Positions 13,072 to 61,000 of a stretch of DNA of 63,412 bases are shown here, one piece after another. The position numbers and the translations under genes were made by a program. Within the stretch, counting starts at the first letter, position 1. Each line of letters begins with the position of its first letter. Source of the stretch: Paraspadella gotoi (lineage: Eukaryota; Animalia; Chaetognatha); contig CM119268.1 in assembly GCA_051294375.1 (NCBI GenBank), forward strand, positions 19,872,417-19,935,828, read 5' to 3'. The notes under the pieces are model-generated. The model saw only the letters and a list, made by a program, of their open reading frames with translations, did not search any database and had not been told where the DNA came from.

Positions 13072-13430
13072 AATCTTAAAAGCAATAGGGATCGAGCCTA
13101 CTTTTGATGATAACCAAATATTGATGCGATGATAACCAAATATTGATGCAGATTTGATAACGAAGGATTGATGCGATGATAACCAAAATGATGGATGCGA
13201 TGATAGCTCCTTCATTGATCGCGATGATAATCATTCATTGATGCGATGATAGTCAATCATTGATGCGATGATATTCATTCATTGATGCGCATGATAGTCA
13301 TTCATTGACATGCTGACGTGACATTGAAAAAAGTATGCATATTTTTAAAAAAAGTATGCATACTTTTTTAAAATATGCATACTTTTTTCAAAGTATGCAT
13401 ACTTTTTCAAAGTATGCATTCTTTGAAAAA
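13072..13430 (+). repeat. Repeat family beginning AAAATCTTAAAAGCAATAGGGATCGAGCCTAC with an internal (ATTGATGCGATGATA..)n minisatellite (copies at 14962, 46755, 50482)
   Basis: Identical head and tandem ~22-bp units in four places. Confidence 0.75.
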
Positions 13431-16276: not shown

Positions 16277-16314
16277 CTGATGAAGACTCTAAAACTCAAG
16301 AGTCGAAACATGTC
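16277..16314 (+). ncRNA. Minimal PLE-type hammerhead ribozyme (duplicate at 17799-17836)
   Basis: CTGATGAAGACTC-loop-GAGTCGAAACATGTC with palindromic stem III ACATGT. Confidence 0.6.
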
Positions 16315-26293: not shown

Positions 26294-26556
26294 GCAAGAT
26301 AAAAAGTGTGATGCCGACGACAACAACGACGACGACGACGTCACAAATCAGAATCAGAAGCAACAGCGACGGAGAAAAAGAGAGAGAGAGAGCAACATAT
26401 AATTTAAAGAAAAAGAGAGAAGCTGAACTCGTCCGGGAGCCTCGAGGTAGCGCGAGCTCCTCCCAATCCAAAGGACTCGGGTTCGCGCCCTGCTGATTAA
26501 AAAAGAAAAGCAAAAAAAACTTAATAAGAATTTTTTTTGTAAAAAAAAAAGGAGAT

Positions 26557-31811: not shown

Positions 31812-32496
31812 TAGGAGTCTATGTCGTTCTTCGAGATCGAGGAAGACTTTTTCAATGGAGATTTTCGTTCAAATCTGACTACCAAACAATATAAACGCTC
31901 CTGGTAATAATTCTGGTAAAATATCGATGTAAAAACACTTGATTCCGATCCTGTTGCATCTGAAGGGCTCGCATTTTTCTTTTCTTGTCAAATCATCAAC
32001 ATCTTGATTTCAAACAAACCAGAACAAATCGACTGCTTCTGGACGAAAAAATTTTCTATCTCTGATTTTATAAAGAAATAAAAGGGATTTTTTTCCTTGA
32101 AAACGATATAAACGTGACTGAGGTATGTTCCTGTTCAACAAATGAGGTCCAATTTTGGAATCCTTTGGCAAAGTGTTTGAAGGGCTCTCAAAATTTTTCT
32201 TTACATTTTATTTGGTTATTTTGATATGATACGATCATGGGAAAGTGAATTAGTCCATTTTGGTGAAATTTTTATTTAAAGTAAAAGTAAAAGAAGAGCT
32301 TACGATCGGAATTCTAAGAGTTTTCAACCGGGAATCAGATTCGGAAAAAATCTTCTATGGCGAAAATCTTCCAAAGAAGGGGTGGATTTTCCGAAGATTT
32401 TGGTTAATATTTTTTATATTTATGGTCGGATTTTTTTGGCCGGTATAAGAATATATTAAAAAAACCTCGGGCTTTGTTTGTCAGAGCTTAGTCCTA
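31812..32496 (-). mobile_element. Non-autonomous TIR element of the TAGGA family, inserted at the Tc1 stop codon
   Basis: TAGGA termini; flanks atatgta (31805-31811) / atatgtc (32497-32503); internal homology to 9640-10165. Confidence 0.65.
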
Positions 32497-33504
32497 ATAT
32501 GTCGTGTGACCTCCCTTGCTCTTCACAACTTCATTTATTCTGTTCGGCATTGACTCATAGAGCGACTGCAGGTATTCCAAGGAGAGGTTATCCCAAACTT
32601 TTTTGATAAGTCGTTTCATGGCTTGCAGAGATGTTGGACGTTCGTTTCTCAGTTGATTTTTCATCTCTGACCACACATTTTCGATCGGATTGAGATCCGG
32701 AGAGTTCCCAGGCCAGTCAGGTAGAAGTTTAACCTCATTTCGGCGATGCCACTCTTTTGTCTCCTTGGCTTGATGCAGAGGGGCGTTGTCTTCCATAAAA
32801 ACTCCACCTCGGACAAATTCCTTTATCTTCACTTCCTCCAGAATTTCTCTGTATTTGGCGCCATCAACGTGTCCCGAAATGAAGATTAACTTTGACTTGG
32901 CACGGGAAGAGATTGCACCGAACACCATGACCTTTGGTTGCTGCTTAACCGTCTGCAATATGCAATTAGGATGCAATGCTTCGCTGACGCGACGTCGAAC
33001 GTGTTGAATCCTCCCATTTTCTTTAGGTTGAAACCAGGATTCATTGCTGAACCAAACTCGGGACCAATGAGCAACTGACCAGTCTTGATGACTTTTCGCA
33101 AAAGATAATCTTTTTTGACGCATTGCTGCAGTTTTGAGTGGCTTTCGTCGTGGTTTTCTCTCCCGAATCCCTCGTTTCACCAAACGGTTGTTCACAGTTT
33201 TACGGCAAACCTTTACTCCAGATTTCGTCATCCACTTTTTTCGAAGGCTCACAGTTGAATCGAATCGGTTTTGTAGTGCCAAGTTCTCCAGTTGTCTATC
33301 CTGAGCCTTGGTTGTGGCCCGTCGCTTCCCGGAACCTATCTTTCTTTTAGTGTTGCCACCATCACGGTAAGACTTGACCAGCCGCTGCACACTTCGAAGA
33401 TTCACTCTTAGCTGCTTAGATATGGAAGTATTCTTGATACCCGCTTTGTGCAATTCAATTATAGATGCACGTTGATCACTTGTAAAATGCCAACGTTGAG
33501 TCAT
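32494..33504 (-). CDS. Tc1-like transposase, uninterrupted ORF, D-35-E spacing, first catalytic Asp replaced by Asn
   Basis: N-terminal HTH region; 'VWFSNESWF', 'FMEDNAPLH', 'WPGNSPDLNPIENVW', C-terminal 'SMPNRINEVVKSKGGHTTY'. Likely start is MTQRWHF. TIRs were not found. Confidence 0.9.
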   Translation of the reverse strand: MTQRWHFTSDQRASIIELHKAGIKNTSISKQLRVNLRSVQRLVKSYRDGGNTKRKIGSGKRRATTKAQDRQLENLALQNRFDSTVSLRKKWMTKSGVKVCRKTVNNRLVKRGIRERKPRRKPLKTAAMRQKRLSFAKSHQDWSVAHWSRVWFSNESWFQPKENGRIQHVRRRVSEALHPNCILQTVKQQPKVMVFGAISSRAKSKLIFISGHVDGAKYREILEEVKIKEFVRGGVFMEDNAPLHQAKETKEWHRRNEVKLLPDWPGNSPDLNPIENVWSEMKNQLRNERPTSLQAMKRLIKKVWDNLSLEYLQSLYESMPNRINEVVKSKGGHTTY

Positions 33505-36080
33505 AATAAAAAAATACAGTGTAAAATAAAAAAAATGAAGGAAAAAAATTATTAAAATCTGAAATACGCCAAACGCAAAAAGAAAGCAAATTTTTTTCAA
33601 TCTTCCTCTGCCCTGACGGCAATTTTAATCATAATCTAACATAAACCGGCTCCATTTGATCGAAAATCGCCAAGCTTTCTGGAAATATAATTGTTTTATT
33701 TTGATTATGTTAGGAAGGTGTTTAAAAATGATCGAGAAGTTTGGCGATTTATTCATTTTCCAAGATGGTACAAGTGCTCTTTTTCACCAGCTGTCACCCT
33801 CGAAATCTTTTTTCCTTCACTCTCTCTCCCTCTCTCTCTCTGCCGTTCCCCTTCCCTTTCCCTCTCTCATTTCGTCTCACTCTCCAAAGGATAAAGTTTG
33901 AATTTTCGCTGATTCTGTCTAAAATTGTAGCCGATGTAGAAGACGAAAATAGTAATAATAAAAGTGGGAAGAAGGTGAAGAATTGTGACGATGTAAGAGA
34001 AGTAGAAAAGAAGTGAGTCTAGCTCTCTCCTGATCCACTTTTATCATCGCCCGGACCAACTTGACCTTACGGTCGCCTCGGCCCTATTACTGTGTCCGGT
34101 CAATCTAAGGTCATTGCCAAAGGTAGGGCAAAGTGACCGTGTGGAATAGACCGGCTCGAAGAAAGAGGAGAGAGGAAGGGTTTAGAGAGAGAGACCGGAG
34201 GTAAGTCGCCTCACCGATGATCTTTAGCTCCTCGACGCTTACAAATATTTTGGTCATTTAAAAAAAAATGTTTTATTGTAAATCACCCCTGAAATTGTAC
34301 AATTTTTTTTCTTTTTTTTTTTTTCAATTTTATTTTGCGTCTATAGACGTTATATAGATATAACTTTTCCTTTCTACTAGGAGGATTTGTCTCTTACTTT
34401 CTCTACTATTAGCATTTTCCCTTCACTTTCTATGGAAATTTCCTCTTCTGTCTGCACCCACTAGATCTTCAATTGCATTGCTTTATGCAAAATAGCAAAT
34501 TTTTGCCTGTTTTAGTCTTAATAAATTAGATGGCTTCACAAATAAAAGAGCATTTTAAAATAAAAAATAAAAATCAATTTTAGTTTAAGTACATCGACCC
34601 GAGGTTCTAAACTTTTTTTCTGAAATAAAAGAACAGTCCCATTAAATTTTCTTTGTGTTTTCACCCTTTTCTACAAGAAAGCTTTTTGCAAGCCAAAAGA
34701 ACATTCAAAATAAATTTTATCTGCACCTGCTCTTTAACAAAGTAGCAATTGTTTTTTAAAATTTTTATTATCTTAAAACTTTTTTTGATATTTTTTAATA
34801 AATAATTTTTTTTTATTCAATTTTATTTTATTATATTTCTTATTCTATGTCTTGATCAAATAATTTTATTCATATATCATATATCAAAACTAAAATAATA
34901 TTGTTTAGATTTATAAATATTTTTGCAAGTACTAAAATGTTATTAGTGCCGCAGTAACAGTTCACTTTAAGCCCTTGAAAGTGATTTACATGTATTTACA
35001 TGTATTTACATGTATTTACATGTACTCATGCGTGAATCGCCGGCTACATCGCTATTTGAAGCAACTACAACTTAGGTTTTTTTTTTTTATTTTAGTTTTT
35101 CTTTAGTCAGCTTTAAAGGTGGCAGCAATTCTTAAACGGAGACTATTTCACGAATTCAAACCATCTATATTTACTTTTATTTGATTTACTTAGTATAGCT
35201 ACAACTAAGAAATAAACTAGAAGATGCACTTTGCTCGTCGTCGTTTTAAAAAGAAGCAGAAGAGAATAAATTTTAATCCATCTCTCTCTCTCCCTCTCTC
35301 TCTATCTCTCTCTCTCTCTCTCTCTAACGTCGTTGTTGACCGCGAATGCAACTCACGATTTTAATGCGTTTGTATCGATCTATATCTCTGTCTACGTCTA
35401 CGATCCATTCCTTTTATTATCTCGCCAGATTTTGCTACATTTTGTTTCGGGTCAGCTTCTTTGTCTCATCAATTCATGACACATCGCGTCTCTCTCTCTC
35501 TCTTTCTCTCTCTCTCTCACTCATACCCAGATTTTTTCATTAATTTTCTGGCGAGATCACTATACTTTTAAGATTTTTTTTCTCCATTTTTATTCTGATT
35601 TCTTTTTTTAACTTTTTCTTTCCTTCTTATTTTGTAATTTTTCATTATTGTAATTTTTCGTCTTCTTCAGCACTTACATTTTTGCTTTGATTCTTAGTTA
35701 CCAAGATAAAGTTTTTGAATTTTGCATTAAAAAAACGCATTCCTCAATATGCTTAGCCTTAATTCCCATCTATGACTTTACTTTTTTTAGGATACGTACA
35801 ACATTAGCAACGACTAGAAATAACTTGGAGTTTAGAGTTACAAGTTATTACATTTGAGGGATTGTTGGTATAAGGAGAAATATTTTTTAAACAAACCCTT
35901 TTTGGTCTTATTTTCCAAAAGTGACCCGTTTCAGCTTAAATGCAGAATTAAGAAAAAAATTTAAGTTTATTTAAATTTAGTTTGGGGATAAAGGTTATGT
36001 TAAAGATGAGAGTTACAGGTCAAGTTAGGCATTTGGTTAAATAGAGCAAATGATTAGCTTTACCACACAATTATACAGTA

Positions 36081-39939: not shown

Positions 39940-40193
39940 TATTGTTTGCCAATACAACGATTTTTATTGTCATAGTACATGTTTCGACTCCTGTTGATTC
40001 GAGTCTTCATCAGCTTTGAAAAAACATTATCAAAAATGCTCTAACATTAAGTTAGAGAGAGAGAGAGAGAGAGAGTGAGAGAGATTGAGGGAGAGTTTCC
40101 AACAAAGGGCTGAGTAAAGGACAGTGGCCAGATAGAGGACAGGTGAAGGTAAGAAAGAGAAGAAGATAATTTTGAAAATGGTGAAAAGTGAAA

Positions 40194-40249
<56 letters not shown>

Positions 40250-40842
40250 ATTACATTTGACAATGTACAACAAAGATAAATTTAGAAAAACTTAGAAATA
40301 AGCTGAGATTTTGAATTAACAAAAGTTAAATAAGTAATAATGATGAAATTGAAATGGAGGAATAGGTGGTGAGGGATAGATAAGTTAATAGTTAAGTGAA
40401 TATATAAGAGAAGAAAGAGCTCAAAATGAGCTGCCCCCCCCGGGTGGACAAAGGTGGGACGTCTGACGATATGATCGGGTCATTGGCTTGTCATAGACTG
40501 AGATGATATTCTTGTAGAGTGGGATATCATGGGTCAGGTAAAGACCCGGCTGGGAAAATACCAAGTGCCACTCTAATATCTCTTTGGCCTGATAAGCCTG
40601 CCGAAGGCCCTCCTCTCACCTGACGGTGAGGTGGGCGGTTGGCCTGTTCTTGCCTGTTTTACTCAGCCCTTTGTTGGAAACTCTCCCTAAAATCTCTCTC
40701 ACTCTCTCTTTCTCCTCTAACTTAATGTGTAGAGCATTTTTGATAATGTTTTTTCAAAGCTGATGAAGACTGCCAATCAACAGAGTCGAAACATGTACTA
40801 TGACAATAAAATCGTTGTATTGGCAAACAAACAATTCCTAAT
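39940..40842 (-). mobile_element. Non-coding Penelope-like 3' fragment with inverted pLTR; hammerheads at 39976-40013 (-) and 40760-40797 (+)
   Basis: 40410-40660 is similar to the PLE 3' end at 51720-51970. 39940-40115 is inverted against 40660-40842. CTGATGA..GAAACATGT cores. Confidence 0.7.
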
Positions 40843-41882: not shown

Positions 41883-42119
41883 GAGAGAAAACAAAAATTT
41901 GTTATCTGATAACAATGATTTTGTTTTTATTTAAATCAGACATGTTTCGACTCTAGGAGTCTTCATCAGCATTTAAATTCACAAACGTTTCATTTTTTTA
42001 ATATTGAGTTTGCCAATTTAAATTCTGATGAAGACTCAAAAGTTATTGAGTCGAAACATGTCCGATTTAAATAAAAACAAAATTATTGTTGTCAAATAAT
42101 GAATTTTCGTTTTCTCTCT
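41883..42119. mobile_element. Mini fold-back unit made of two inverted minimal hammerhead ribozymes (41939-41969 -, 42025-42062 +)
   Basis: Both arms read tttaaat-CTGATGAAGACTC..GAGTCGAAACATGTC-(c/t)gatttaaataaaaacaaaat. Confidence 0.7.
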
Positions 42120-42163: not shown

Positions 42164-42640
42164 TATGGCGGACTAAAACCCACCAACCGTTCATCAGCGG
42201 CCATTGGTGCCGGAGGCAAGTCATTCGCCTCCCAACCCAAAGGTCCGGGGTTCTAGCCCGGTGGTCGTCTGGCAGTTAAGAGGGACGGGGCGCTTAACCC
42301 GCCTGTAACATGGTGTTACAGCCTGATCCGAAGCTCAGGGACTGCTTATATTGAACGGTTCTATCACTAACTCATAATAATAATTACTGTCTCATCATTC
42401 CGAACACAACAGCAACACTTTCAGGCGACATGCCTCAACCTGGCGATGCACTTTCCACCCACAACACAACAGGCGACATGCTTCGTCAGTAACCACGGCA
42501 AAAGCAATGACGACGATGAGAATAATGATTGACTTGATTGATTGACTATTTGATTAATTAACAGCCTGATCCGAAGCTCAGGGACTGCTTATATTAAACG
42601 GTTCTGTCTCTAACTCAAAACAATAATTACTGTCTCTTCA
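42164..42640 (+). mobile_element. Second locus of the TRIM family: LTR 42164-42397, partial internal region with PBS deleted, partial 3' LTR 42561-42640
   Basis: Reverse-complement match to 2926-3574, including the internal motif aggcgacatgcctcaacctggcga. Further LTR-end fragments occur at ~13022-13070 and ~14913-14963. Confidence 0.8.
42272..42345 (+). ncRNA. Best-preserved putative type-P5 twister ribozyme; predicted cleavage between U42295 and A42296
   Basis: P5 GCAGU/ACUGC; L1 GA-CGG; U-A-A; T2 GC; P3 CUGUAAC/GUUACAG; P4 CCUGA/UCAGG; 8-nt L4 U-CCG-AA-GC, with CCG complementary to CGG (T1). Confidence 0.7.
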
Positions 42641-44895: not shown

Positions 44896-47064
44896 AAATT
44901 TAAACTTACCTGTCGCCATATAGAAGACCTGACATAGTAAAGAGGTATCAGAGTACATAATTGCACCCCCAGATGGCCCTCCTCATTAATTAAACTAATT
45001 CCAAGTACTCTTTCCCATTTATCTTCATAATGTCTTCATAATGATTTGGCTAGAATGATACAGTAAAAATACAGTGTAAAAGTTTAAATTTGGACTAGAT
45101 ACTTTGTTTCTCTGAATTCTTAAACCATAAGCCATAAACGAGTTAGACGATGGGTTCAACTGAAAGTGATATGTCTCTAAATGATAAAAAAATTTTCTTT
45201 AGTTTTTATTTTGAAATTTAGGTATTATAAAATAGGATAAATTGAGATACTCCCGCTTTGCCGAATTTTTATTTAACAAAGATTTGTACTGCGTAGTTCA
45301 AATCTTTAGTCCTCCGATGTAAAAAAAGTTATTTTTTTGCAATACTTTTGAAAGAAATGAGATAGGATGGTGGGCGAGGTATCAAATTAAAGGCCTAATC
45401 ATGGGGCATCTTTCTGAACTAGTTTCTATAAATTTTATCGAAAAATGTTAAGACAGAATTTGTTTAAAACCTAGTTAAAAGTATAAACAGTTTTCGGAGT
45501 TATAAAATTTTAATGAAGGAAATTAATTTTTTTTAATATTCTTTTGCATTTGTAAAAAGGAAAGACTGAATTACATTTTGATTACAATAAAGCTCATTTA
45601 CTCCATAAATTTGCATGTATTTTTGGTTAAAGTAAAAAACAAGCAAAAATACATATAGTAGCATGATAAAATATTATTTTAATATGTAAATTATAAATTA
45701 AAAGTTATTTTCAGTTTAATATAAACAGTTTGGTTGTCTACCTTTTTGTCTGTGAAAAAAAATAATCATTTTTCATTATTTTTTAACTGGAAACAAAAAG
45801 CTTGACCCACTGCTTGTTTATCATATTACAATTTTAAATAGATACAAATACAACATGTATTTTTTAAATTGTATTTATTTTAAGCTTTTATAATTTCTTT
45901 TTATATAAAACATCTAATATTCTCAATTTGAGCAAAGCTTTACTTCTTTAAAGATTTGGAAAAAATATTAGACTTGAACCAATGGTCATTCAGATTTTAG
46001 TTTTGCATAAAAAATCAAGATATCAAAACAAAAAAAATCAGATTGTTCTAAAATCGAATGCCTTGAATCTGATTTTTTTCAAAATGCAAAATTTTGGTTC
46101 ATCATCTAGATCTAAAATTCTGAACACAAAATGTTTTTTTCGAAAATTGAATTATTCTATCCTCTTCAATAATTAAAAATTAATTAAGCATATTATTCTT
46201 GCAAATTAAGCAGCCAAATTTATCATGCATATTGGCAAAAGATTGCCCTTTTGAAAAATCTATTTGAAAATCTTTGCTGTTGATGATGATGGTCTATTAC
46301 AATGAACAAGTTCAAATATAGATAAAAAGAAAAAAATTATTTTGTAATTCTAGTATCATAATTCATTTGCATATTTTGTACTATTACCAGAATAAAAAAT
46401 TATTTACTAATGGGTCTGAAATATTGCTCTTTTTCTGTAGATAATAATATCTATTGTTAAAGCTCATTATGTATATTCGTAAGGCAACCAAGGCTCTTAA
46501 CATAACGCTACTTACAATTCTTTAAGCATTTTTTGGACTTTTTGTCAGATTTCTTCTTTTCCTGACCCTATTGCCCTTCTTGTGGGCGGTTGACACTCAT
46601 GGAGACAGTACCTTAGGTCTCCGAGTACCAAACAACAACTATGGCTAAAAGATTATGAATCAAATATGGCGACGAGGGAAATAAAAAGGATCATAAGTAG
46701 GGTGGGAAGCAAATTAAGCGTGATCTGTCTTTGCGTCTTAATTAATTTAGGAGAAAAAAAATCTAAAAAGCAATAGGGATCGAGCCTACTTTTGATGATA
46801 ATCAAATATTGATGCGATAACCAAATTTGATGCGATTAAACCGAAGGATTGAATGCGATGATAACCAAATGATGGATGCGATGATAACCAAATGATGGAT
46901 GCGATGATAATCATTCATTATGGATGATAATCATTCATTGATGCGATGATAATCATTCATTGATGCGATGATATCTTCATTGATTCGATTGATTGTCTAA
47001 TGATCGATGATATCATACATATCATTGATGCGAAGATAGTCATTCATTGACGTGATGAGTTAAT

Positions 47065-47099
<35 letters not shown>

Positions 47100-47539
47100 A
47101 GAGAGAATAATAAATTAATAAATAAAGTTTTCAGAAGGAAAAAATAAAAATCCACGAATCTTAGAAATAAATTTGTGATTTTGTATTAAGAAAAAGTTGC
47201 GTGATAAAAATAAAATTGTTTATTAGAGTGTGTGATTAAGCATCAATTAACTTTCTATTTTTTTTTCAATTGAAATAAGATTGAAGTCTTTTGTTCATCT
47301 AGTTCAAAAATGAGGTTGAAAACCTTATTTTTTGCATATTATTGAAAAATGAATGAGATTGATATTGATTGTATGAAATGAAAACTCGTCGCTATGAAGC
47401 TAAACAATTTTCAATAATAACGGTCAAAAAATTATAATCTCTATTAACAAAATATATAGTTGACAATAATCAGTTAACGACTATGATATTTTTGACTTCC
47501 ATATATTTTTTTTACTTATTCAATTAGGAAAAACAGTTT

Positions 47540-47779
47540 TAATGTGGCAACGAATTTTATTGACAAGTAAGTCGGACATGTTCCGACTCTTATAGAGTTA
47601 GAGTCTTCATCAGCAAGTGATTTTTCACAACAATTGTCTCTGTGAAAGTTGAGTTTGGTGAGAGAGAGAGAGACAGAGAGAGAGGGAGATTCCAACAAAG
47701 AATTGAGTGAGAAAGTGGTCAGATGTGAGGACAGTTCAAGGTAAGGACAGGGGAAGTAGAAAGTAAGATTGTGAAAATG

Positions 47780-47814
<35 letters not shown>

Positions 47815-48493
47815 ACAATTGAAATTAATACATTTAGTAATGTACAACAGAGAAAATAAGAATAAAATAAGTAAACTTAAAGATTAACTAAGTAAACTAC
47901 TATTAACAACAATGAAAATAAATTGTAAAATGAAGTGAAATTGAAATGGAAGAATAAGTGGTTAGGATAGGTAAGTAAAGAGTTAGTGAAAGTAAGTAAA
48001 AGAAAGAGCTCAAAAATGAGCTGGCCCCCCCCGGCCGGGCAAATGGAGGACGTTGACGATAAGATCGGGTCATTGGCCTGTCATAGGTTGAGAGGATATA
48101 TTTGTAGAGCGTGACATTCTGGGTCTGGTAAGGTTCCACTGGGAAAAATGCCAAGTGCCACTCGTATATCTTCTTTGGCCTGATAAGCCTGCCGACGGCC
48201 CTCCTCTCACCTGACGGTGAGGCAGGTTGCCTGTTCTTGCTGTTTGGGCGACGCTCGGTGCGAGGAGAGTCGTACCGAGTTGCTACAGGCTCGAGAGAGG
48301 TATCGGACATCCATTGCCTGCTGAGAGGCCTCCGCCTGGCCCGTTGAGTAGGGACAGGGGAATCATTGTGCGGTTGGGGTGGCTCTGGGCGTCCACCACC
48401 ATTTTGATAAGCGAATCATAGCTTGGAGGGAGTTCGAATCGTCCTCCATCACGGTTCAGAGAGGGCTCGAGGGCCTTTGACTGTCAAAATTGC
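47540..48493 (-). mobile_element. Duplicate of the PLE 3' part, ending at a gap
   Basis: Near-identical to 51260-52215; hammerhead-like motif at 47575-47613. Confidence 0.8.
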
Positions 48494-50796
48494 NNNNNNN
48501 NNNNNNNNNNNNNNNNNNCGTAATCCATATATGCTGTCCAAAAATTTAAACTTACCTGTCGCCATATAGAAGACCTGACATAGTAAGAGGTATCAGAGTA
48601 CATAATTGCACCCCAGATGGCCCTCCACTCATTAATTAAACTAATTCCAAGTACTCTTTCCCATTTATCTTCATAATGTCTTCATAATGATTTGGCTAGA
48701 ATGATACAGTAAAATACAGTGTAAAAGTTTAAATTTGGACTAGATACTTTGTTTCTCTGAATTCTTAAACCATAAGCCATAAACGAGTTAGACGATGGGT
48801 TCAACTGAAAGTGATATGTCTCTAAATGATAAAAAAATTTTCTTTAGTTTTTATTTTGAAATTTAGGTATTATACAAATAGGATAAATTGAGATACTCCC
48901 GCTTTGCCGAAATTTTTATTTAACAAAGATTTGTACTGCGTAGTTCAAATCTTTAGTCCTCCGATGATAAAAAAAGTTATTTTTTTGCATAACTTTTGAA
49001 AGAAATGAGATAGGATGGTGGGCGAGGTATCAAATTAAAGGCCTAATCATGGGGCATCTTTCTGAACTAGTTTCTATAAATTTTATCGAAAAATGTTAAG
49101 ACAGAATTTGTTTAAAACCTAGTTAAAAGTATAACAGTTTTCGGAGTTAAAAATTTTAATGAAGGAAATTAATTTTTTTAATATTCTTTTGCATTTGTAA
49201 AAAGGAAAGACTGAATTACATTTTGATTACCANNNNNNNNNNNNNNNNNNNNNNNNNNNNNNNNNNNNNNNNNNNNNNNNNNNNNNNNNNNNNNNNNNNN
49301 NNNNNNNNNNNNNNNNNNNNNNNNNNNNNNNNNNNNNNNNNNNNNNNNNNNNNNNNNNNNNNNNNNNNNNNNNNNNNNNNNNNNNNNNNNNNNNNNNNNN
49401 NNNNNNNNNNNNNNNNNNNNNNNNNNNNNNNNNNNNNNNNNNNNNNNNNNNNNNNNNNNNNNNNNNNNNNNNNNNNNNNNNNNNNNNNNNNNNNNNNNNN
49501 NNNNNNNNNNNNNNNNNNNNNNNNNNNNNNNNNNNNNNNNTTATCATATTACAATTTTAAATAGATACAAATACAAACATGTATTTTTTAAATTGTATTT
49601 TATTTTAAGCTTTTATAATTTCTTTTTATATAAAACATCTAATATTCTCAATTTGAGCAAAGCTTTACTTCTTAAAGTTGCGAAAAAAATATTAAGAGAC
49701 TTGACCAATGGTCATTCAGAATTTTTTAGTTTGCATAAAAATCAAGAATCAAAAAACAAAAAAAATCAGATTGTTCTAAAATCGAATGCCTTGAATCTGA
49801 TTTTTTTCAAAATGCAAAATTTTGGTTCATCATCTAGATCTAAAATTCTGAACACAAAATGTTTTTTTCGAAAATTGAATTATTCTATCCTCTTCAATAA
49901 TTAAAAATTAATTAAGCATATTATTCTTGCAAATTAAGCAGCCAAATTTATCATGCATATTGGCAAAAGATTGCCCTTTTGAAAAATCTATTTGAAAATC
50001 TTTGCTGTTGATGATGATGGTCTATTACAATGAACAAGTTCAAATATAGATAAAAAGAAAAAATTATTTTGTAATTCTAGTATCATAATTCATTTGCATA
50101 TTTTGTACTATTACCAGATAAAAAATTATTTACTAATGGGTCTGAAATATTGCTCTTTTTCTGTAGATAATGAATATCTATTGTTAAAGCTCATTATGTA
50201 TATTCGTAAGGCAACCAAGGCTCTTAACATAACGCTACTACAATTCTTTAAGCATTTTTCTGGACTTTTTGTCAGATTTCTTCTTTTCCTGACCCTATTG
50301 CCCTTCTTGTGGGCGGTTGACACTCATGGAGACAGTACCTTAGGTCTCCGAGTACCAAACAACAACTATGGCTAAAAGATTATGAATCAAATATGGCGAC
50401 GAGGGAAATAAAAAGGATCATAAGTAGGGTGGGAAGCAAATTAAGCGTGATCTGTCTTTGCGTCTTAATTAATTTAGGAGAAAAAAAATCTTAAAAGCAA
50501 TAGGGATCGAGCCTACTTTTGATGATAATCAAATATTGATGCGATAACCAAATATTGATGCGATTATAACCGAAGGATTGATGCGATGATAACCAAATGA
50601 TGGATGCGATGATAACCAAATGATGGATGCGATGATAATCATTCATTGATGCGATGATAATCATTCATTGATGCGATGATAATCATTCATTGATGCGATG
50701 ATAGTCCTTCATTGATCGGATGATAATCATTCATTGATGCGATGATATTCATTCATTGATGCGAAGATAGTCATTCATTGACGTGATGAGTTAATT

Positions 50797-50828
<32 letters not shown>

Positions 50829-51259
50829 AGAGAGAATAATAAATTAATAATAAAAGTTTTCAGAAGGAAAAAAATAAAAATCCACGAAAATCTTAGAAAT
50901 AAATTTGTGATTTTGTATTAAGAAAAAAGTGGCGTGATAAAAATAAAATTGTTTATTAGAGTGTGTGATTAAGCATCAATTAACTTTCTATTTTTTTTTC
51001 AATTGAAATAAGATTGAAGTCTTTTGTTCATCTAGTTCAAAATGAGGTTGAAAACCTTATTTTTTTGCATATTATTGAAAATGAATGAGATTGATATTGA
51101 TTGTATGAAATGAAAACTCGTCGCTATGAAGCTAAACAATTTTCAATAATAACGGTCAAAAAATTATAATCTCTATTAACAAAATATATAGTTGACAATA
51201 ATCAGTTAACGACTATGATATTTTTGACTTCCATATATTTTTTTTACTTATTCAATTAG

Positions 51260-53890
51260 GAAAAACAGTTTTAATGTGGCAACGAATTTTATTGACAATA
51301 AGTCGACATGTTTGACTCTTAATAGAGTTAGAGTCTCATCAGCAAGTGATTTTTCACAACAATTGTCTCTGTGAATTTGAGTTTGGTGAGAGAGAGAGAG
51401 ACAGAGAGAGAGGGAGATTCCAACAAAGAATTGAGGAGAAAGTGGTCAGATGTGAGGACAGTTCAGGTAAGGACAGGGGAAGTAGAAGTAAGATTTGTGA
51501 AAATGAAAAGAGAGAGAGAGAGAGAGAAGAGAGAGAGAGACACAAATTGAAATTAATACATTTAGTAATGTACAACAGAGAAAATAAGAATAAATAATAA
51601 ACTTAAAGATTAACTAGTAATACTACTATTAACAACAATGAAAATAATTAGTAAAATGAAGTGAAATTGAAATGGAAGAATAAGTGGTTAGGGATAGGTA
51701 AGTAAAGAGTTAGTGAAAGTAAGTAAAAGAAAGAGCTCAAAATGAGCTGGCCCCCCCCGCCGGGCAAATGGAGGACGTTGACCGATAAGATCGGGTCATT
51801 GGCCTGTCATAGGTTGAGAGGATATATTTGTAGAGCGTGACATTCTGGGGTCTGGTAAGGTTCCACTGGGAAAAATGCCAAGTGCCACTCGTTATATCTC
51901 TTTGGCCTGATAAGCCTGCCGACGGCCCTCCTCTCACCTGACGGTGAGGCAGGTTGCTGTTCTTGCCTGTTTTGGGCGACGCTCGTGCGAGGAGTCGTAC
52001 CGAGTTGCTACAGGCTCGAGAGAGGTATCGGACAATCCTTGCTGCTTGAGAGGCCTCCGCCTGGCCGTTGAGTAGGGACAGGGAGATTCATTGTGCGTTT
52101 GGGTGCTCGGGCGTTCCAGCCACCAATTTTGATAGCGAATCATAGCTTGGAGGGAGTTCGAATCGTTCCTCCATCACGGTTCAGAGAGGGCTCGAGGGCT
52201 TTGATGTAAATTGCCTCTCTAATACCTCTTGAAAACCAGTTTTGGTCATGGACAGCACGAGACAGTCAGTCTCTCTCTAAACAGATGGCCTGATGATGCC
52301 GTGTGCTCGGGCAATAGCCGATAGAAAGCTGACCACGTGAGTCACGATAAAGCTTTGTGTGCTGCTTAAAACCGTCTGCTAGAGATTTGCCTGTCTCGCC
52401 CACGTATGCTGCTGTGCAGGGTTGGTGCCCGCGCCGGCGCACAGGCCGCCCAGTAACGGCTCTGATGTTTTGTTATTCTGCGGGGAATTTTGGTCTTTCG
52501 GTTTCACCAAATGCTCACGTGGAGAGAGCCGCGGGTCGTCACTGAGCTGGAGATCCCCTGCTTTGCTAGCACCGCACCAGAGCTTCAGTGATCCCCTGGT
52601 GGTAGGGCAGGGAGAACAGACCACGACTCTTGAGGCGCTTCTGCTTATCTCCCTTGCGCTGTGGTGGGCGCGGTCGTCCTTCAGCAGCAAGGCCTCGTTC
52701 GTCCTCTCGTGGGGGCGGAGGTTGAACCTGCGTTAGCGGCTACTTACGGTTGAGGCAGCCCTTGGTGGCCACTGCCCTCAGCGAGGTTCAGCCGGAACTT
52801 GCCTCTCGACATGCCCACAGAGGGTAACCATCGAGCGCCAGGGCTCTTTTGACATGCTCAAGCTCTCGGCGGCCTGGAGCTCGGGGGTCGACGGAATCAG
52901 AATAGCTCTTCTGGTAAGGGATCTGACCGTGGCGAGCTTGTTGCGACAAGGGAGCATGCGAATCGAAAGGAATGTATTGATCAGTGTGCGTTGGTTTGCG
53001 ATAGACAGAAAATTCAAATGAGCCGCCCTCTCTGCGTTTTTACAAGCACATCGAGCCATTGGAATTTCGCCATTCACTCTCCTTTTCGCATGTCCACTTG
53101 ATGCTCGCTTCAATGCTGTTCAGGTGGACAATAGGGTATCAACGAGATCCTTCTCACGGCCAGAATAGTATCATCGCGCTCTCCGATACCAGAAGAGAAC
53201 TGAATCTGCCCCATGCAGAGATTGAAAAAGAAGCCAAGGTTCACCTCATAGTCCTCCATATAAAAATCTGCCAGAGGACTTGAGGTTGATTTTGCCCATC
53301 CCTAAGCCACCAGGCTGGGCATAGTACGGTCCATCGAACCTGAAGTACGCCAGTTCCAGGTCGAGCTAACGAGCTCATTTTTGAGCTCTTTCTTTTACTT
53401 TACTTTCACTAACTCTTTACTTTACCTATCCCTAACCACTTATTCTTCCATTTCACATTTCACTATTTCTTCATTTTACTAATTTATTTTCATTGTTGTT
53501 GTAATATAGTATAGTTATCTTATAATCTTAGTTAATTTTAAGTTTACTTATTTATTCTTATTTTCTTCTTGTTGTACATTACTAAAGGTATTAATTTTCA
53601 ATTTGTGTCTCTCTCTCTCTCTCTCTCTCTCTTTCATTTTCACAATCTTACTTCTACTTCCCCTGTCCTTACCTTGAACTGTCCTCACATCTGACCCTTT
53701 CCTCACCAAATTCTTTGTTGGAATCTCCCTCTTCTCTCTTGTCTCTTCTCTCTCACCAAACTCAACTTTCACAGAGACAATTGTTGTGAAAAATCACTTG
53801 CTGATGAAGACTCTAACCTCTATAAGAGTCGAAACATGTCCGACTTACTTGTCAATAAAATTCGTTGCCACATTAAAAACTGTTTTTCCT
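51260..53890 (-). mobile_element. Penelope-like retroelement, 5'-truncated within RT, with GIY-YIG endonuclease and inverted pLTR; frameshifted
   Basis: This copy and its duplicate together give 'IKWTCEKE.NGEIP.LDV', 'SVYRKPTHTDQYI', 'LATVRSLTRRA', 'GAVYW..C..C.AAYVGETGKSLADRF..H' and 'WFSRGIREAIYI...PSLNRDGG'. 51260-51750 is inverted against 53370-53890; hammerhead at 53801-53840. Confidence 0.9.
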
Positions 53891-56580
53891 AAATGCTAAA
53901 AAACAACGAATTCGAAAGTCTATACATAATGTCTACTTATTCAAATATAATTTTTATTTTTTTCCTCATCTTAAAAAATTTTAATCTTGAATGAAATTTA
54001 AGATTGTTATATTTTTTATATTATTTATATTAATCTGCGCAATTGCCGGATATATAGCAGGTATCGCCTACCTGTCACACAAGTTGATGTACATGTGACA
54101 TTGCCTGCATTATAAGTTATTCTTCCCTTTTATTAAAATGAATTCACGAAAATCTCGGATGTAAATTTGGGATTTTGTATTGAGAAAAAAATAAATGGCG
54201 ATATTAAAAGTTTTTAGAAGGAAAGAAATATTAAGAATTTTTCCAAAAACGAACGATCGTACAGAGAGAGAGAGACAAAGACAGAGAGAGAGAAAGAAGC
54301 TGAACAGACGCTGCAGAGCCGGAACTCGTTTACTCGTCACCTAGTGACAGTGAAGAAAAAATTGATTAAAAAAATTTTTACATTTTTACAATCATAGGTT
54401 GTTAACGATTTTATTTTTATTTGTATTAAAATTAAGATATAGCTTCTGTTTAAAAAGTTCCTTTGAGTTCCCATTTTTATTATAGATTTAAAAAACATTT
54501 TTTTGAATTTCATCTTCAATATTATATACTGCAATATGTAAATTAGATTAAAGCATTTCTATATACTAATTTGGATACTAAAATGAGTACTATAATCTCA
54601 TTTGCATATTGCAGTAAATCATAATGAAGTGGAAATTCAAACAAAAAATACTTAAATCCAAATGTAATAAGAAAATATCAGAGCTATTTCAAGATGAGAA
54701 GCCATATCTAAATTTTTAACTTACTATGATCGCACACTTTTATAAAACTTCATCGTAATTCATAATAATTTTTATTTTAACAAAAACGGTAAGTCCAGCC
54801 AAAACTATAAAACCATAGTAGTTTTTATACAAAAAAGCGTGACGCCGACGATGACGTCACAAAGAAGCTGACCTGAATCAATATAGAGCCTGAACCGGCT
54901 TCGCCGGTAGGCTCGATAAAAACAATTTATTTGTTTTTATCAACGAATTGTATAATTGTTAAGACATGTTTTAGAGTCTTCACGTACGATCGAACTCTTT
55001 TAGACAATGATTTCTGAACTTAAATAATTACCAACTCTTTTGATCTCAGTGATTACTATGATGTGTTCTATGTTTAAAAAAAGGTTTGCTATGGTTATCT
55101 CATTCCTATTACATAGTATTGTTCAGTTGATTTTCTACGATTTAAAAATACGGTAAGACATTATTTCTTCAGTGATTATCAATTAACTCATTAACTACCG
55201 AATTTCAGATGAAATATGAATGAAATTTTTATGGTACGAAACAACTTTTAAAGATCAAATTCCTCCTTTGAACTTTTTCGGCTTTAAATTACTCAAAACT
55301 TCTCAGGCAAGACGCCACTTATCTGATACAATTTTTTCCCTTCATTCCTTTTCCCTGATTCTTTCTCTTCACCTCTGTTCTTCTCTGTGTTTCTAATTTT
55401 CCTTCCTCTTTCCTCCCCTACTTTTCACGCCGTCACTTACCTTTTTTCCGACCTAACCTTTCTCTGCAACTATTTTACTTTCCTATCCTTTTTTTCTCTC
55501 CTTCCCTATCTTTTACCCTATTTTCCCCTCTTTTTCTTTCCATATTTCCCCTCTTTTTTCCCGATTTTCCTTTATATCCCTATTTTTTTCCCTTTTCCTT
55601 CTTATTTTGCATTTCCCCCTTCTTTCTCATTCTCTCCCCTTCTCCTTTCTTGTTCTCTCTTTTCACCCCTCCCACTAATTTCTGCCTTTACATTGAACCA
55701 AATCAAAGAAATTCTTTAATATGCATTATAAGAAAAGAAATTTACGGTATCACATCATTTTATTTCAATTTTGGTTGCCTGGCAGATTTAGTAAATCGAC
55801 AGATTTGGCGGAAAATTTTCCGCAAAATCTGTCGATTCTAAAGAAAAAAACAAGTCCTGACGATTTCCATTGGGTTAAAATGATGCGGTTTTTTTTTTTT
55901 TGTTTTATTAACGTCAGTATTTACCTCATCTGTTAAAACTATAAAATGAATTTAAAATCTTATCTTATAAAAAATAAAAGCAAGTCACAAAAAGTCAACA
56001 AATTAATTGTCGTCTTTAAAAATTATTTATGGCTAAACGAAAAAAAGTTTTTTTTACAATTTTGTAGGTATTAAAAGCTCATTCAATAAGCTATATTTTA
56101 CAAATTATGATAAAAAATTGAAAATGAAACTTTTTGACTTGTCAACTTTAAAATTAATTCATAGACAAACTACAAATGATTTACCAAATAAATTTACCCA
56201 TAGGTGAAGAAGATAAGGAAGAACGGATTTATAAAGAAAAAAAATTTTCTTTACTTTCCTTGCATTAAATCAGACGACGAAAGTGAAAATGGACAAAAAT
56301 GGACATGATTTTTTTTCTTAAATGTTGCGAAAAATGGTACTTTTTTATCATTAGAAATTGGTCGAGATTATTTTAACCAATCTCTAGTTCGGCCCAATTT
56401 GTATTATGGTACAAATTAAATTAATCTTGTAAGTAATAACTGAACAATACTGGAAAAAGTAGTTTTTTTTTGTGAATGCGAGGATTGTAAGTAGAGGCTC
56501 AAACAAAACCAGTTTTAATTATTAAAGCATTTTCTATTAAATGGTGATTTTTTAATAATCGATGTTTTGAGAGAAGATGA

Positions 56581-58070
56581 ATAAAGCTTTGTGTGCCGCT
56601 TAAACCGATCTGCTAGAGATTTGCCTGTCTCGCCCACGTATGCTGCTGTGCAGGGTTGGTTGCCCGCGCCGGCACAGGCCGCCCAGTAGACGGCTCCTGA
56701 TGTTTTCGGTCTGGGGATTTTGTCTTTCGGTTTCACCAAATGCCACGGAGAGAGCCGCGGGTCGTCACTGAGCTGGAGATCCCTGCTTTGCTAGCACCGC
56801 ACCAGAGCTTCAGTGATCCCCTGGTGGTAGGGCAGGGAGACATGACCCACGTTCTTGAGGCGCTTCTGCTTATCTCCCACTTGCGCTGTGGTGGGCGCGG
56901 TCGTCCTTCAGCAGCAAGGCCTCGTTCGTCCCCCTGGGGGGCGGAGGTTGAACCTGCGTTAGCGGCTACTTGGGCAGCCCCTTGGTGGCCACTGCCCTCA
57001 GCGAGGTTCAGCCGGAACCTTGCCTTCTCGAATGCCCACAGAGGGTAACCATTGAGCGCCAGGGCTCTTTGACATGCTCAAGCTCGGCGGCCTGGAGCTC
57101 GGGGGTCGACGGAATCAGAATAGCTCTTCTGGTAAGGGATCTGACCGTGGCGAGCTTGTGCGACAAGGGAGCATGCGAATCGAAGGAATGTATTGATCAG
57201 TGTGCGTTGGTTTGCGATAGACAGAAAATTCAAATGAGCCGCCCTCTCTGCGTTTTACAAGCACATCGAGCATTGGAATTTCGCCATTCACCTCCTTTTC
57301 GCATGTCCACTTGATGCTCGCTTTCAATGCTGTTCAGGTGGACAATAGGGTATCAACGAGATCCCTTCTCACGGCCAGAATAGTATCATCCGCCTCCGAT
57401 ACCAGAAGAGAACTGAATCTGCCCCATGCAGAGATTGAAAAGAAGCCAAGGCTTCCACCTCATAGTCCTCCATATAAAAATCTGCCAGAGGACTTGAGGT
57501 TGATTTGCCCATCCCTAAGCCACCAGGCTGGGCATAGTACGTCCATCGAACCTGAAGTACGCCAGTTCCAGGTCAGCTAACGAGCTCATTTTGAGCTCTT
57601 TCTTTTACTTACTTTCACTAACTCTTTACTTCCTATCCCTAACCACTTATTCTTCCATTTCAATTTCACTTCATTTTACTAATTTATTTTCATTGTTGTT
57701 AATAGTAGTATATTAGTTAATCTTTAAGTTTACTTATTTATTCTTATTTTCTCTGTTTACATTACTAAATGTATTAATTTCAATTTGTGTCTCTCTCTCT
57801 CTCTCTCTCTCTCTTTCATTTTCACAATCTTACTTCTACTTCCCCTGTCCTTACTTGAACTGTCCTCACATCTGACCACTTTCTCACTCAATTCTTTGTT
57901 GGAATCTCCCTCTCTCTCTGTCTCTCTCCTCTCACCAAACTCAACTTTCACAGAGACAATTGTTGTGAAAAATCACTTGCTGATGAAGACTCTAACTCTA
58001 TAAGAGTCGAAACATGTCCGACTTACTTGTCAATAAAATTCGTTGCCACATTAAAACTGTTTTTCCTAAA
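56581..58070 (-). mobile_element. Duplicate of the PLE RT/EN part plus inverted pLTR
   Basis: Near-identical to 52345-53890; hammerhead at 57980-58018. Confidence 0.8.
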
Positions 58071-61000
58071 ATGCTAAAAAACAACGAAATCGAAAGTCTA
58101 TACATAATGTCTACTTATTCAAATAAATTTATTTCCTCATCTTAAAAAATTTTAATCTTGAATGAAATTTAAGATTGTTATATTTTTTATATTATTTATA
58201 TTAATCTGCGCAATTGCCGGATATATAGCAGGTATCGCGCCTACCTGTCACACAAGTTGATTGACATGTGACATTGCCTGCCATTATAAGTTATTTTCCC
58301 TTTTATTAAAATGAATTCACGAAAATCTCGGATGTAAATTTGGGATTTTGTATTGAGAAAAAAATAAATGGCGATATTAAAAGTTTTTAGAAGGAAAGAA
58401 ATATTAAGAATTTTTCCAAAAACGAACGATCGTACAGAGAGAGAGAGACAAAGACAGAGAGAGAGAAAGAAGCTGAACAGACGCTGCAGAGCCGGAACTC
58501 GTTTACTCGTCACCTAGTGACAGTGAAGAAAAAAATTGATTAAAAAAATTTTTACATTTTACAATCATAGGTTGTTAACGATTTTATTTTTATTTGTATT
58601 AAAATTAAGATATAGCTTCTGTTTAAAAAGTTCCTTTGAGTTCCCATTTTTATTATAGATTTAAAAAAACATTTTTTTGAATTTCATCTTCAATATTATA
58701 TACTGCAATATGTAAATTAGATTAAAGCATTTCTATATACTAATTTGGATACTAAAATGAGTACTATAATCTCATTTGCATATTGCAGTAAATCATAATG
58801 AAGTGGAAATTCAAACAAAAAATACTTAAATCCAAATGTAATAAGAAAATATCAGAGCTATTTCAAGATGAGAAGCCATATCTAAATTTTTAACTTACTA
58901 TGATCGCACACTTTTATAAAACTTCATCGTAATTCATAATAATTTTTATTTTAACAAAAACGGTAAGTTCCAGCCAAAACTATAAACCATAGTAGTTTTT
59001 ATAACAAAAAGCGTGACGCCGACGATGACGTCACAAAGAAGCTGACCTGAATCAATATAGAGCCTGAACCGGCTTCGCCGGTAGGCTCGATAAAAACAAT
59101 TTATTTGTTTTTATCAACGAATTGTATAATTGTTAAGACATGTTTTAGAGTCTTCACGTACGATCGAACTCTTTTAGACAATGATTTCTGAACTTAATAA
59201 TTACCAACTCTTTTGATCTCAGTGATTACTATGATGTGTTCTATGTTTAAAAAAAGGTTTGCTATGGTTATCTCATTCCTATTACATAGTATTGTTCAGT
59301 TGATTTTCTACGATTTAAAAATACGGTAAGACATTATTTCTTCAGTGATTATCAATCTAATCTCATTAACTACCGAATTTCAGATGAAATATGAATGAAT
59401 TTTTATGGTACGAACAACTTTTAAAGATCAAATTCCTCCTTTGAACTTTTTCGGTCTTAAATTACTCAAAACTTCTCAGGCAAGACGCCACATTATCTGA
59501 TACAATTTTTTCCCTTCATTCCTTTTCCCTGATTCTTTCTCTTCACCTCTGTTCTTCTCTGTGTTTCTAATTTTCCTTTCCTCTTTCCTCCCCTACTTTT
59601 CACGCCGTCACTTACCTTTTTCCGACCTAACCTTTCTCTGCAACTATTTTACTTTCCTTATCCTTTTTTCTCTCCTTCCCTATCTTTTACCCTATTTTCC
59701 CCTCTTTTTCTTTCCATATTTCCCCTCTTTTTCCCGATTTTCCTTTATATCCCTATTTTTTTTCCCTTTTCCTTCTTATTTTGCATTTCCCCCTTCTTTC
59801 TCATTCTCTCCCCTTCTCCTTTTCTTGTTCTCTCTTTTCACCCCTCCCACTAATTTCTGCCTTTACATTGAACCAAATCAAAGAAATTCTTTAATATGCA
59901 TTATAAGAAAAGAAATTTACGGTATCACATCATTTTATTTCAATTTTGGTTGCCTGGCAGATTTAGTAAATCGACAGATTTGGCGGAAAATTTTCCGCAA
60001 AATCTGTCGATTCTAAGAAAAAACAAGTCCTGACGATTTCCATTGGGTTAAAATGATGCGGTTTTTTTTTTTTGTTTTATTAACGTCAGTATTTACCTCA
60101 TCTGTTAAAACTATAAAATGAATTTAAAAATCTTATCTTTATAAAAAATAAAAGCAAGTCACAAAAAGTCACAAATTAATTGTCGTCTTTAAAAATTATT
60201 TATGGCTAAACGAAAAAAAGTTTTTTTTACAATTTTGTAGGTATTAAAAGCTCATTCAATAAGCTATATTTTACAAATTATGATAAAAATTGAAAATGAA
60301 ACTTTTTGACTTGTCAACTTTAAAATTAATTCATAGACAAACTACAAATGATTTAACCAAATAAATTTACCCATAGGTGAAGAAGATAAGGAAGAACGGA
60401 TTTATAAAGAAAAAAATTTTCTTTACTTTCCTTGGCATTAAAATCAGACGACGAAAGTGAAAATGGACAAAAATGGACATGATTTTTTTCTTAAATGTTG
60501 CGAAAAATGGTACTTTTTTATCATTAGAAATTGGTCGAGATTATTTTAACCAATCTCTAGTTCGGCCCAATTTGTATTATGGTACAAATTAAATTAATCT
60601 TGTAAGTAATAACTGAACAATACTGGAAAAAGTAGTTTTTTTTTGTGAATGCGAGGATTGTAAGTAGAGGCTCAAACAAAACCAGTTTTAATTATTAAAG
60701 CATTTTCTATTAAATGGTGATTTTTTAATAATCGATGTTTTGTATTTTTCCATNNNNNNNNNNNNNNNNNNNNNNNNNCAAAAAATTTTATAAAAGGGTT
60801 ATTTTTTAATATTTCTTAGAAAGATTACTTTATAAATTTAGGTAACTCTTTATAAACAGATTATGTAAGGGTTACACCGTCCTACGTAAATGCGCAGTTT
60901 TCAAATCTATATTTAACTTCGAAATTTATTTGCCATTTACTTTTTTATGAATTTAATAATTTAAGCATTAAGTATTACTTTAAAGATCTTGAGAATCTTG

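Follow-up and report, generated by a model that had tools for sequence, protein, structure and literature searches.

The window, by which we mean the whole stretch of 63,412 nucleotides analysed, carries at 42164–42397 (plus strand) a 234-bp repeat with TA...CA ends, LTR copy A, which contains a twister-like core. Its ends are sharp in contigs of public runs: 87 contigs of run X4 had loose ends at 42164 and 109 at 42397, with 24 and 29, respectively, in run X9, and these loose ends were diverse and A/T-rich on both sides of the repeat. Copy A is followed by a damaged internal region (42398–42484, +), from which the primer site is deleted, and then, within a different repeat, by the 3' piece of another LTR copy comprising P4/L4 and the tail (42561–42640, +). 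The repeat is very abundant, occurring in 13,599 contigs of run X4 (a run that may represent the source sample), where the summed depth, which is not a copy number, was 1–3 million over most of the unit compared to about 2,000 in the left flank. The LTR family is high-copy.

Two further full copies, 91% identical to each other, were found on the minus strand: copy B (3341–3574, 234 bp) and copy C (2926–3155, 230 bp). They flank an interior that runs from a primer-binding site to a polypurine tract, with a CAGG duplication outside, and are the 5' and 3' LTR, respectively, of a single element of 649 bp (2926–3574, −), each LTR of which contains the ribozyme motif. The internal region is non-coding and spans 185 bp (3156–3340, −). 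Its primer-binding site (3327–3340, −) agrees at 13 of 14 positions with the tRNA-Trp site of Helenus-2_SyJa and Gypsy-32_NVi, an assignment made by comparison with these known sites, and its 12-nt polypurine tract (3158–3169, −) lies 2 nt before the 3' LTR. The 4-bp CAGG copies (left 3575–3578, right 2922–2925, both −) flank the one complete element present in the window (1/1). Two LTRs, primer-binding site, polypurine tract, tRNA-like segment and 4-bp duplication together identify the element as a Helenus-type TRIM; a tRNA-derived SINE reading was dropped on finding the primer site, polypurine tract and target duplication. No hammerhead core was found in the element, and a hammerhead candidate in the internal region was rejected. 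A decayed copy D (4504–4646, −) has a 65-bp deletion that includes the cleavage strand. Among several further pieces, LTR tail fragments lie at 13022–13073 and 14914–14966 (−) within a 1.9-kb local duplication. The ends at 42164 and 3574 start with TA although TG-TA follows the purine tract; judging from the LTR junctions, trimming seems to remove two bases irrespective of the usual CA end. Frame pieces flanking the full element (2065–2799 and 4841–5281, +) resemble, on visual inspection, a DNA-transposon gene in decay and gave no Pfam match.

Upstream of the twister lies a tRNA-like segment (42197–42268, +) whose acceptor-like stem has 7 bp; it contains a degenerate box A (42205–42216) and, at tRNA spacing, a clear box B (42249–42259). 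ARAGORN found no tRNA here; we infer a Pol III promoter from the sequence of the segment. At 42265 and 42268, common variants convert G-U to G-C pairs and so preserve the acceptor-like stem. An outer helix (42185–42360, +; arms 42185–42193 and 42352–42360) encloses both the tRNA-like part and the twister. The element's sense strand contains no TTTT run, which is weak evidence, as such a run is also absent in 18% of shuffles. Another tRNA-like repeat head, at 26459–26490 (+) with pieces near 700–770, has only the tRNA part in common with the twister LTR.

Other repeats surround these copies. Hammerhead-like cores (CUGAUGA, stem II, GAAA) constitute a second family, at 41945–41969 (−), 42025–42056 (+), 39982–40013 (−) and 40760–40791 (+), and on the plus strand at 16277, 17799, 53801 and 57980; two pairs of them form inverted arms, as in Penelope pseudo-LTR insertions. 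The Rfam search did not report these cores, and its miRNA matches at 41900–42100 were discarded as due to the inverted repeat. A transposase reading frame of the Tc1/mariner kind, open and including both HTH and DDE domains, occupies 32494–33624 (−), its closest proteins being 51% identical. The segments 45818–52214 and 52347–60742 are near-identical tandem duplications (96%) that adjoin assembly gaps and may be uncollapsed haplotypes.

Anatomy and homology of the twister-like core

The core (42272–42345, +), delineated by direct reading, folding, a descriptor and a half-model, follows the type-P5 strand order. It opens with one strand of P5 (42272–42276, paired with 42341–42345), a UAA linker and the 3' strand of P2, GAGG (42280–42283), after which come the conserved G42284 and A42285, the CGG 3' strand of T1 (42286–42288) and a 6-nt self-complementary linker, the P1 remnant (42289–42294), in place of the P1 hairpin. 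The cleavage strand, U42295^A42296-A42297, has its predicted cut between U42295 and A42296 and leads into the 5' strand of P2, CCC (42298–42300), a GC (42301–42302) that pairs with GC 42333–42334 as T2, the C-G-closed hairpin P3 (42303–42321) and P4 (42322–42326 with 42335–42339), whose 8-nt loop L4 reads U-CCG-AA-GC (42327–42334). These positions presumably map onto the numbering of the rice Osa-1-4 twister. In a comparison based on the Rfam consensus lines and on Table 1 of PMC8501958, all nucleotides conserved in the Rfam twister lines (U^AA, G-A and U-NNN-AA-GC) were present.

A preliminary description of the locus had placed an intact type-P5 core with a compensatory T1 pseudoknot here, and every element it named was recovered in place. 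Intactness holds for copy A alone; copy B has T1 mismatched at two pairs, and copy C has one G-U in T1 and a G at −1. The atypical features it pointed out, a P2 strand of 3 nt and a P4 of 5 bp in place of the canonical 4 bp in each helix, are identical in all three full copies. The twister homology it proposed is well supported, while the LTR context escaped it, as did the absence of the P1 hairpin, which cannot form in 6 nt. Compensation in T1 stood in part: CCG:CGG differs on both sides from the CCC:GGG of other twisters, but no covariation was seen inside the family. The one common T1 variant, at 42330, breaks T1 (11% of depth in X4, 4% in X9) and was not matched by a change at 42286 exceeding the 3% threshold, and no compensatory change anywhere in the family was seen at 3% or more. 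In phage twisters the CCG:CGG combination is natural, occurring in 38 distinct matches (58 loci), of which 24 (40 loci) have well-formed P2 and P4.

Using a loose twister descriptor, composed after the motif was seen and permitting a 3-nt P2, we obtained two matches in the window, one in copy A and one in copy C. Shuffling the whole window 200 times gave seven matches and shuffling the 234-bp repeat 50,000 times gave none, so the fit of 42272–42345 exceeds chance. The Rfam search of the window found no ribozyme; the 95 bases around the core gave no match even at E ≤ 10, and the core did not reach at least 37.6 bits for Twister-P5 (RF02684). As controls, we collected twister loci from phage contigs. 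Only 1 of 20 type-P1 loci chosen by pattern reached the Rfam gathering score. At E-value thresholds Rfam found 8/8 phage controls, five of them as Twister-P5 (42.7–55.5 bits), and thereby recovered every phage P5 control (5/5). Since Rfam is silent on the motif but finds such controls, the motif lies outside its models. We then scored the window with a half-model built from 29 phage twisters, which extends from the cleavage strand to P4 and does not cover T1' and G-A. Its top three hits in 63 kb were exactly the three LTR copies, although their scores were weak (9.7–11.5 bits, E 0.2–0.6) compared to those of 10 control loci (24–49 bits). T1' and G-A, which the half-model ignores, are also present in the motif.

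Several dimensions of the core are unusual. The linker in the place of P1 measures 6 nt, against 20–26 nt in 12 phage P5 cores, and the spacing from P3 to L4 is 5 nt, against 4 nt in 59 of 61 phage P1 controls. A 3-nt P2 is rare in the phage contigs, with one well-formed locus against about 180 with 4 nt; two of three 3-nt matches were discarded as mis-registered 4-nt twisters. The remaining one, L209:97–149 (−), is a twister of type P1 in which P2 is a clean 3-bp helix and both P1 and P4 are full; it scores 33.5 bits in Rfam and offers a natural test case for P2 length. Our first phage P5 pattern gave no matches, and a looser one yielded 12 distinct cores in 119 loci. In metagenome scans the family motif had no match; a relaxed core had 92, none of which resembles the element by BLAST, and the five with at least three P4 pairs were not convincing. 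Published assays on 1,948 scored natural twisters, all of type P1, found that imperfections in P1, P2 and P4 are tolerated, and that pseudoknot mismatches and catalytic changes are not (PMC11662667); P1 is dispensable and can be deleted (PMC5408937). The short P2, 5-bp P4 and missing P1 may therefore be less damaging than they look.

The motif might instead be a chance three-hairpin fold in a SINE or a Penelope pseudo-LTR derivative, a reading that we consider highly improbable. It would fit the silence of Rfam, the half-model E-values and the late composition of the descriptor; non-autonomous Penelope derivatives have been mistaken for LTR elements (PMC8557442), and the target duplication is documented by a single element. 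It is opposed by the absence of matches in 50,000 repeat shuffles, the low yield of the Rfam gathering score among pattern-selected phage twisters, and the co-occurrence of two sharp ends with a primer site for tRNA-Trp, a polypurine tract and a duplication of 4 bp. We conclude that 42272–42345 is very probably homologous to twister ribozymes and, judged by its sequence, is a real but atypical type-P5 variant; activity in some form we rate as somewhat more likely than not.

Predicted folding and the palindromic linker

In predicted folds, P3, P4 and P5 formed with pairing probabilities mostly above 0.97. Pairing is possible for both pseudoknots, T1 being perfect in copy A. With pseudoknots unscored, a competing hairpin between T1' and the P2 strand reached an ensemble probability of 0.99 and was predicted to be 7.7 kcal/mol more stable than the twister-compatible fold. 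This gap was independent of context, at 7.7 kcal/mol in seven of seven folding windows. Control twisters had a median gap of 3.1 kcal/mol; at least 7 kcal/mol was reached by 4 of 81 P1 controls (maximum 8.8) and by none of 12 P5 controls, so that the motif tops all of the latter and ranks among the highest of the former.

The P1 remnant (42289–42294) is unchanged in copies A, B and C. A 6-mer is self-complementary by chance with a frequency of about 0.06, and the self-duplex of this one is predicted at −8.3 kcal/mol. Because the remnant is palindromic, the two LTR ribozymes might act as a dimer, and modelling suggests that two copies might form a shared 6-bp P1. With P1 shared, each ribozyme would pay a folding penalty of about 3.7 instead of 7.7 kcal/mol, close to the median of the controls. 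The strand-swapped dimer, at −47.5 kcal/mol for its nested pairs, is nevertheless less favourable than two competing monomers (−54.8 kcal/mol). Some animal hammerheads function as dimers (PMC7229834), and the dimer proposed here would be the twister counterpart of the double hammerhead. In the literature searched, which omits most subscription papers, we found no natural dimeric twister; if true, such a dimer would add to the natural forms known for this ribozyme.

The dominance of the competing hairpin is also what would be expected if the ribozyme were a passenger, that is, if the LTR had captured, from an RTE- or Penelope/Naiad-derived repeat, a twister that is now weak or dead, while the element moves as an ordinary TRIM driven by Pol III, its R region being long. 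We rate this as possible but on the unlikely side. It would accommodate the short P2 and missing P1 hairpin, the common T1-breaking variant and the broken copies B and D. The letters of P3 and the linker resemble, by eye, those of Schistosoma mansoni RTE twisters (PMC8501958), which fits capture, and Helenus needs no ribozyme, known families having spread without a reported one in the text accessible to us (PMC10886601). On the other hand, both catalytic residues, L4, T2 and all helices are free of variants reaching 3% across the 13,599 contigs, although the family may simply be young. The twisters at S. mansoni RTE 5' ends are moreover of type P1 and not P5-permuted (PMC8501958).

A possible retrozyme cycle

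Our preferred reading, held tentatively and with slightly less than even confidence, is of a high-copy Helenus-type TRIM whose LTR carries a variant of the type-P5 twister, this motif serving to process the RNA of an LTR retrozyme. The motif likely cuts the element's RNA, and the element may be copied through a circle. RtcB circularises animal retrozyme RNA (PMC7229834), and plant LTR retrozymes are circularised and then reverse-transcribed across the junction (PMC4918200, PMC7761336). In the proposed cycle, transcription by Pol III would begin near 42197 in the 5' LTR and continue across the element, in which there is no four-T run. Cleavage by the ribozyme at U^A in each of the two LTRs would free a unit of 419 nt without terminal repeat (R), with termini that are a 5'-OH and a 2',3'-cyclic phosphate. 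The two monomer ends could re-pair via P5 because the fold is P5-permuted, a permutation that suits circularisation, as pairing persists on either side of the cut. Closure of the circle would fall to a host RtcB-type ligase. With tRNA-Trp as primer, a Gypsy reverse transcriptase would then copy across the junction and thereby rebuild both LTRs, promoter included.

More speculatively, the two LTR ribozymes may share one P1 helix through the palindromic remnant, which would favour the cutting of two-LTR transcripts, whereas a circle with one ribozyme would stay closed in the competing hairpin. The full proposal, a Pol III-driven animal mini LTR element whose P5-permuted twister makes circular RNA and whose LTR ribozymes cut as a strand-swapped dimer via a palindromic P1, is in our judgement fairly unlikely.

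Folding of the predicted cut monomer of the B–C element gave mixed results. The outer helix formed across its ends with a probability of about 0.84 and so links both ends of the monomer, in favour of a retrozyme. P5 was not predicted across these ends in the B–C copy. The predicted circle was 54% paired (z −0.7), and 15 of 60 shuffles were as stable; retrozyme circles are described as more than 70% paired (PMC4918200). This unremarkable pairing, seen in one aged copy, speaks against a retrozyme, as do the dominance of the competing hairpin and the uncompensated 11% T1 variant. Variable sites numbered 3 of 74 in the twister and 9 of 74 in the tRNA part, so that the lower variation in the twister is not significant (p 0.13).

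An unremarkable circle would also be in keeping with an active ribozyme that forms 3' ends: it would replace the Pol III terminator, cut mainly the 3' LTR, make no circle and leave an R of about 99 nt (42197–42295) for normal strand transfer. The missing TTTT run supports this alternative, and in most of the wasp Helenus LTRs examined by eye a T run stands behind box B. The leader that forms the outer helix would be transcribed only in the 3' LTR, and in copy A with its damaged internal region P5 was predicted at 0.81 with this leader and at 0.29 without. Yet both LTRs carry the same motif, so that co-transcriptional cutting would hit the 5' copy first, and the gap between twister and hairpin is the same in all seven folding windows. 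We regard 3'-end formation without a circle as unlikely.

Relation to known elements

Among described ribozymes, the core is closest in plan to Twister-P5 (RF02684, clan CL00120), with which it shares strand order, U^AA, G-A-NNN, T1, T2, P4 and the 8-nt L4. It differs from Twister-P5 in lacking the P1 hairpin, in its 3-nt P2 strand and 5 nt from P3 to L4, and in having no Rfam score. P5 is here a closed helix, and the location is a eukaryotic LTR. Settings of twisters in the literature searched are RTE 5' ends and viroid-like circles. In the RTE element Perere-3 of S. mansoni, a twister likewise sits in a retroelement, but that element is non-LTR and its type-P1 twister marks the 5' end of the insertion, whereas the predicted cut here falls in the middle of an LTR (PMC8501958). 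The tRNA/hammerhead Sm-alpha repeats of S. mansoni also combine a Pol III promoter with a ribozyme, again in a non-LTR setting (PMC6765202).

The element itself resembles Helenus (TRIMp3; Kojima, 2024), TRIMs with tRNA-derived LTRs that, in animals, show 4-bp duplications and Gypsy dependence (PMC10886601). Like these, it is non-coding and below 1 kb, with a tRNA-derived LTR segment, a tRNA primer site, a polypurine tract, a 4-bp duplication and an apparent excess of LTRs, and wasp Helenus families also have TA...CA ends. Unlike Helenus, it has a twister following its tRNA segment, and its box A is degenerate and departs from the usual Helenus motif. The accessible text of the Helenus paper makes no mention of a twister, and loop-motif searches of its supplement, which covered few variants, placed none in an LTR among the matches listed (PMC10886601).

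With the plant LTR retrozymes (Cervera et al, 2016; PMC4918200), the element has in common a ribozyme in each LTR, a primer-binding site, a polypurine tract and a 4-bp duplication; Gypsy dependence and the loss of R after cleavage, described for the plant elements, are proposed for it as well. It differs from them in having a twister instead of a type III hammerhead, a tRNA-type promoter, a Trp rather than a Met primer and a smaller predicted unit (419 nt), and its circles are a proposal. Its host is probably an animal, judging by genome make-up and the 4-bp duplication. The retrozymes described from animals, as far as the accessible sources go, are only of the non-LTR hammerhead kind (PMC7229834), and a preprint of July 2026 keeps the split between hammerhead LTR retrozymes in plants and non-LTR ones in animals (10.64898/2026.07.22.740005). 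In the literature searched (including PMC10085705, PMC5680766 and 10.1101/2022.07.19.500677), mostly papers outside subscription and exclusive of the original twister paper, we found no twister in an LTR element. On these sources, a ribozyme in an LTR appears to be known so far only from plants, with a different ribozyme; the parts assembled here are each of a known kind, and it is the combination of a twister with a Helenus-type TRIM that we did not find in print.

Twisters are widespread and few have a known role, and the setting described here predicts a defined RNA product of 419 nt with fixed ends. If the retrozyme reading is true, very abundant twister variants escape Rfam, LTR retrozymes come to include a further class of ribozyme and probably animal hosts as well, and the Helenus TRIMs join the LTR retrozymes of plants, from which they have so far been described separately.
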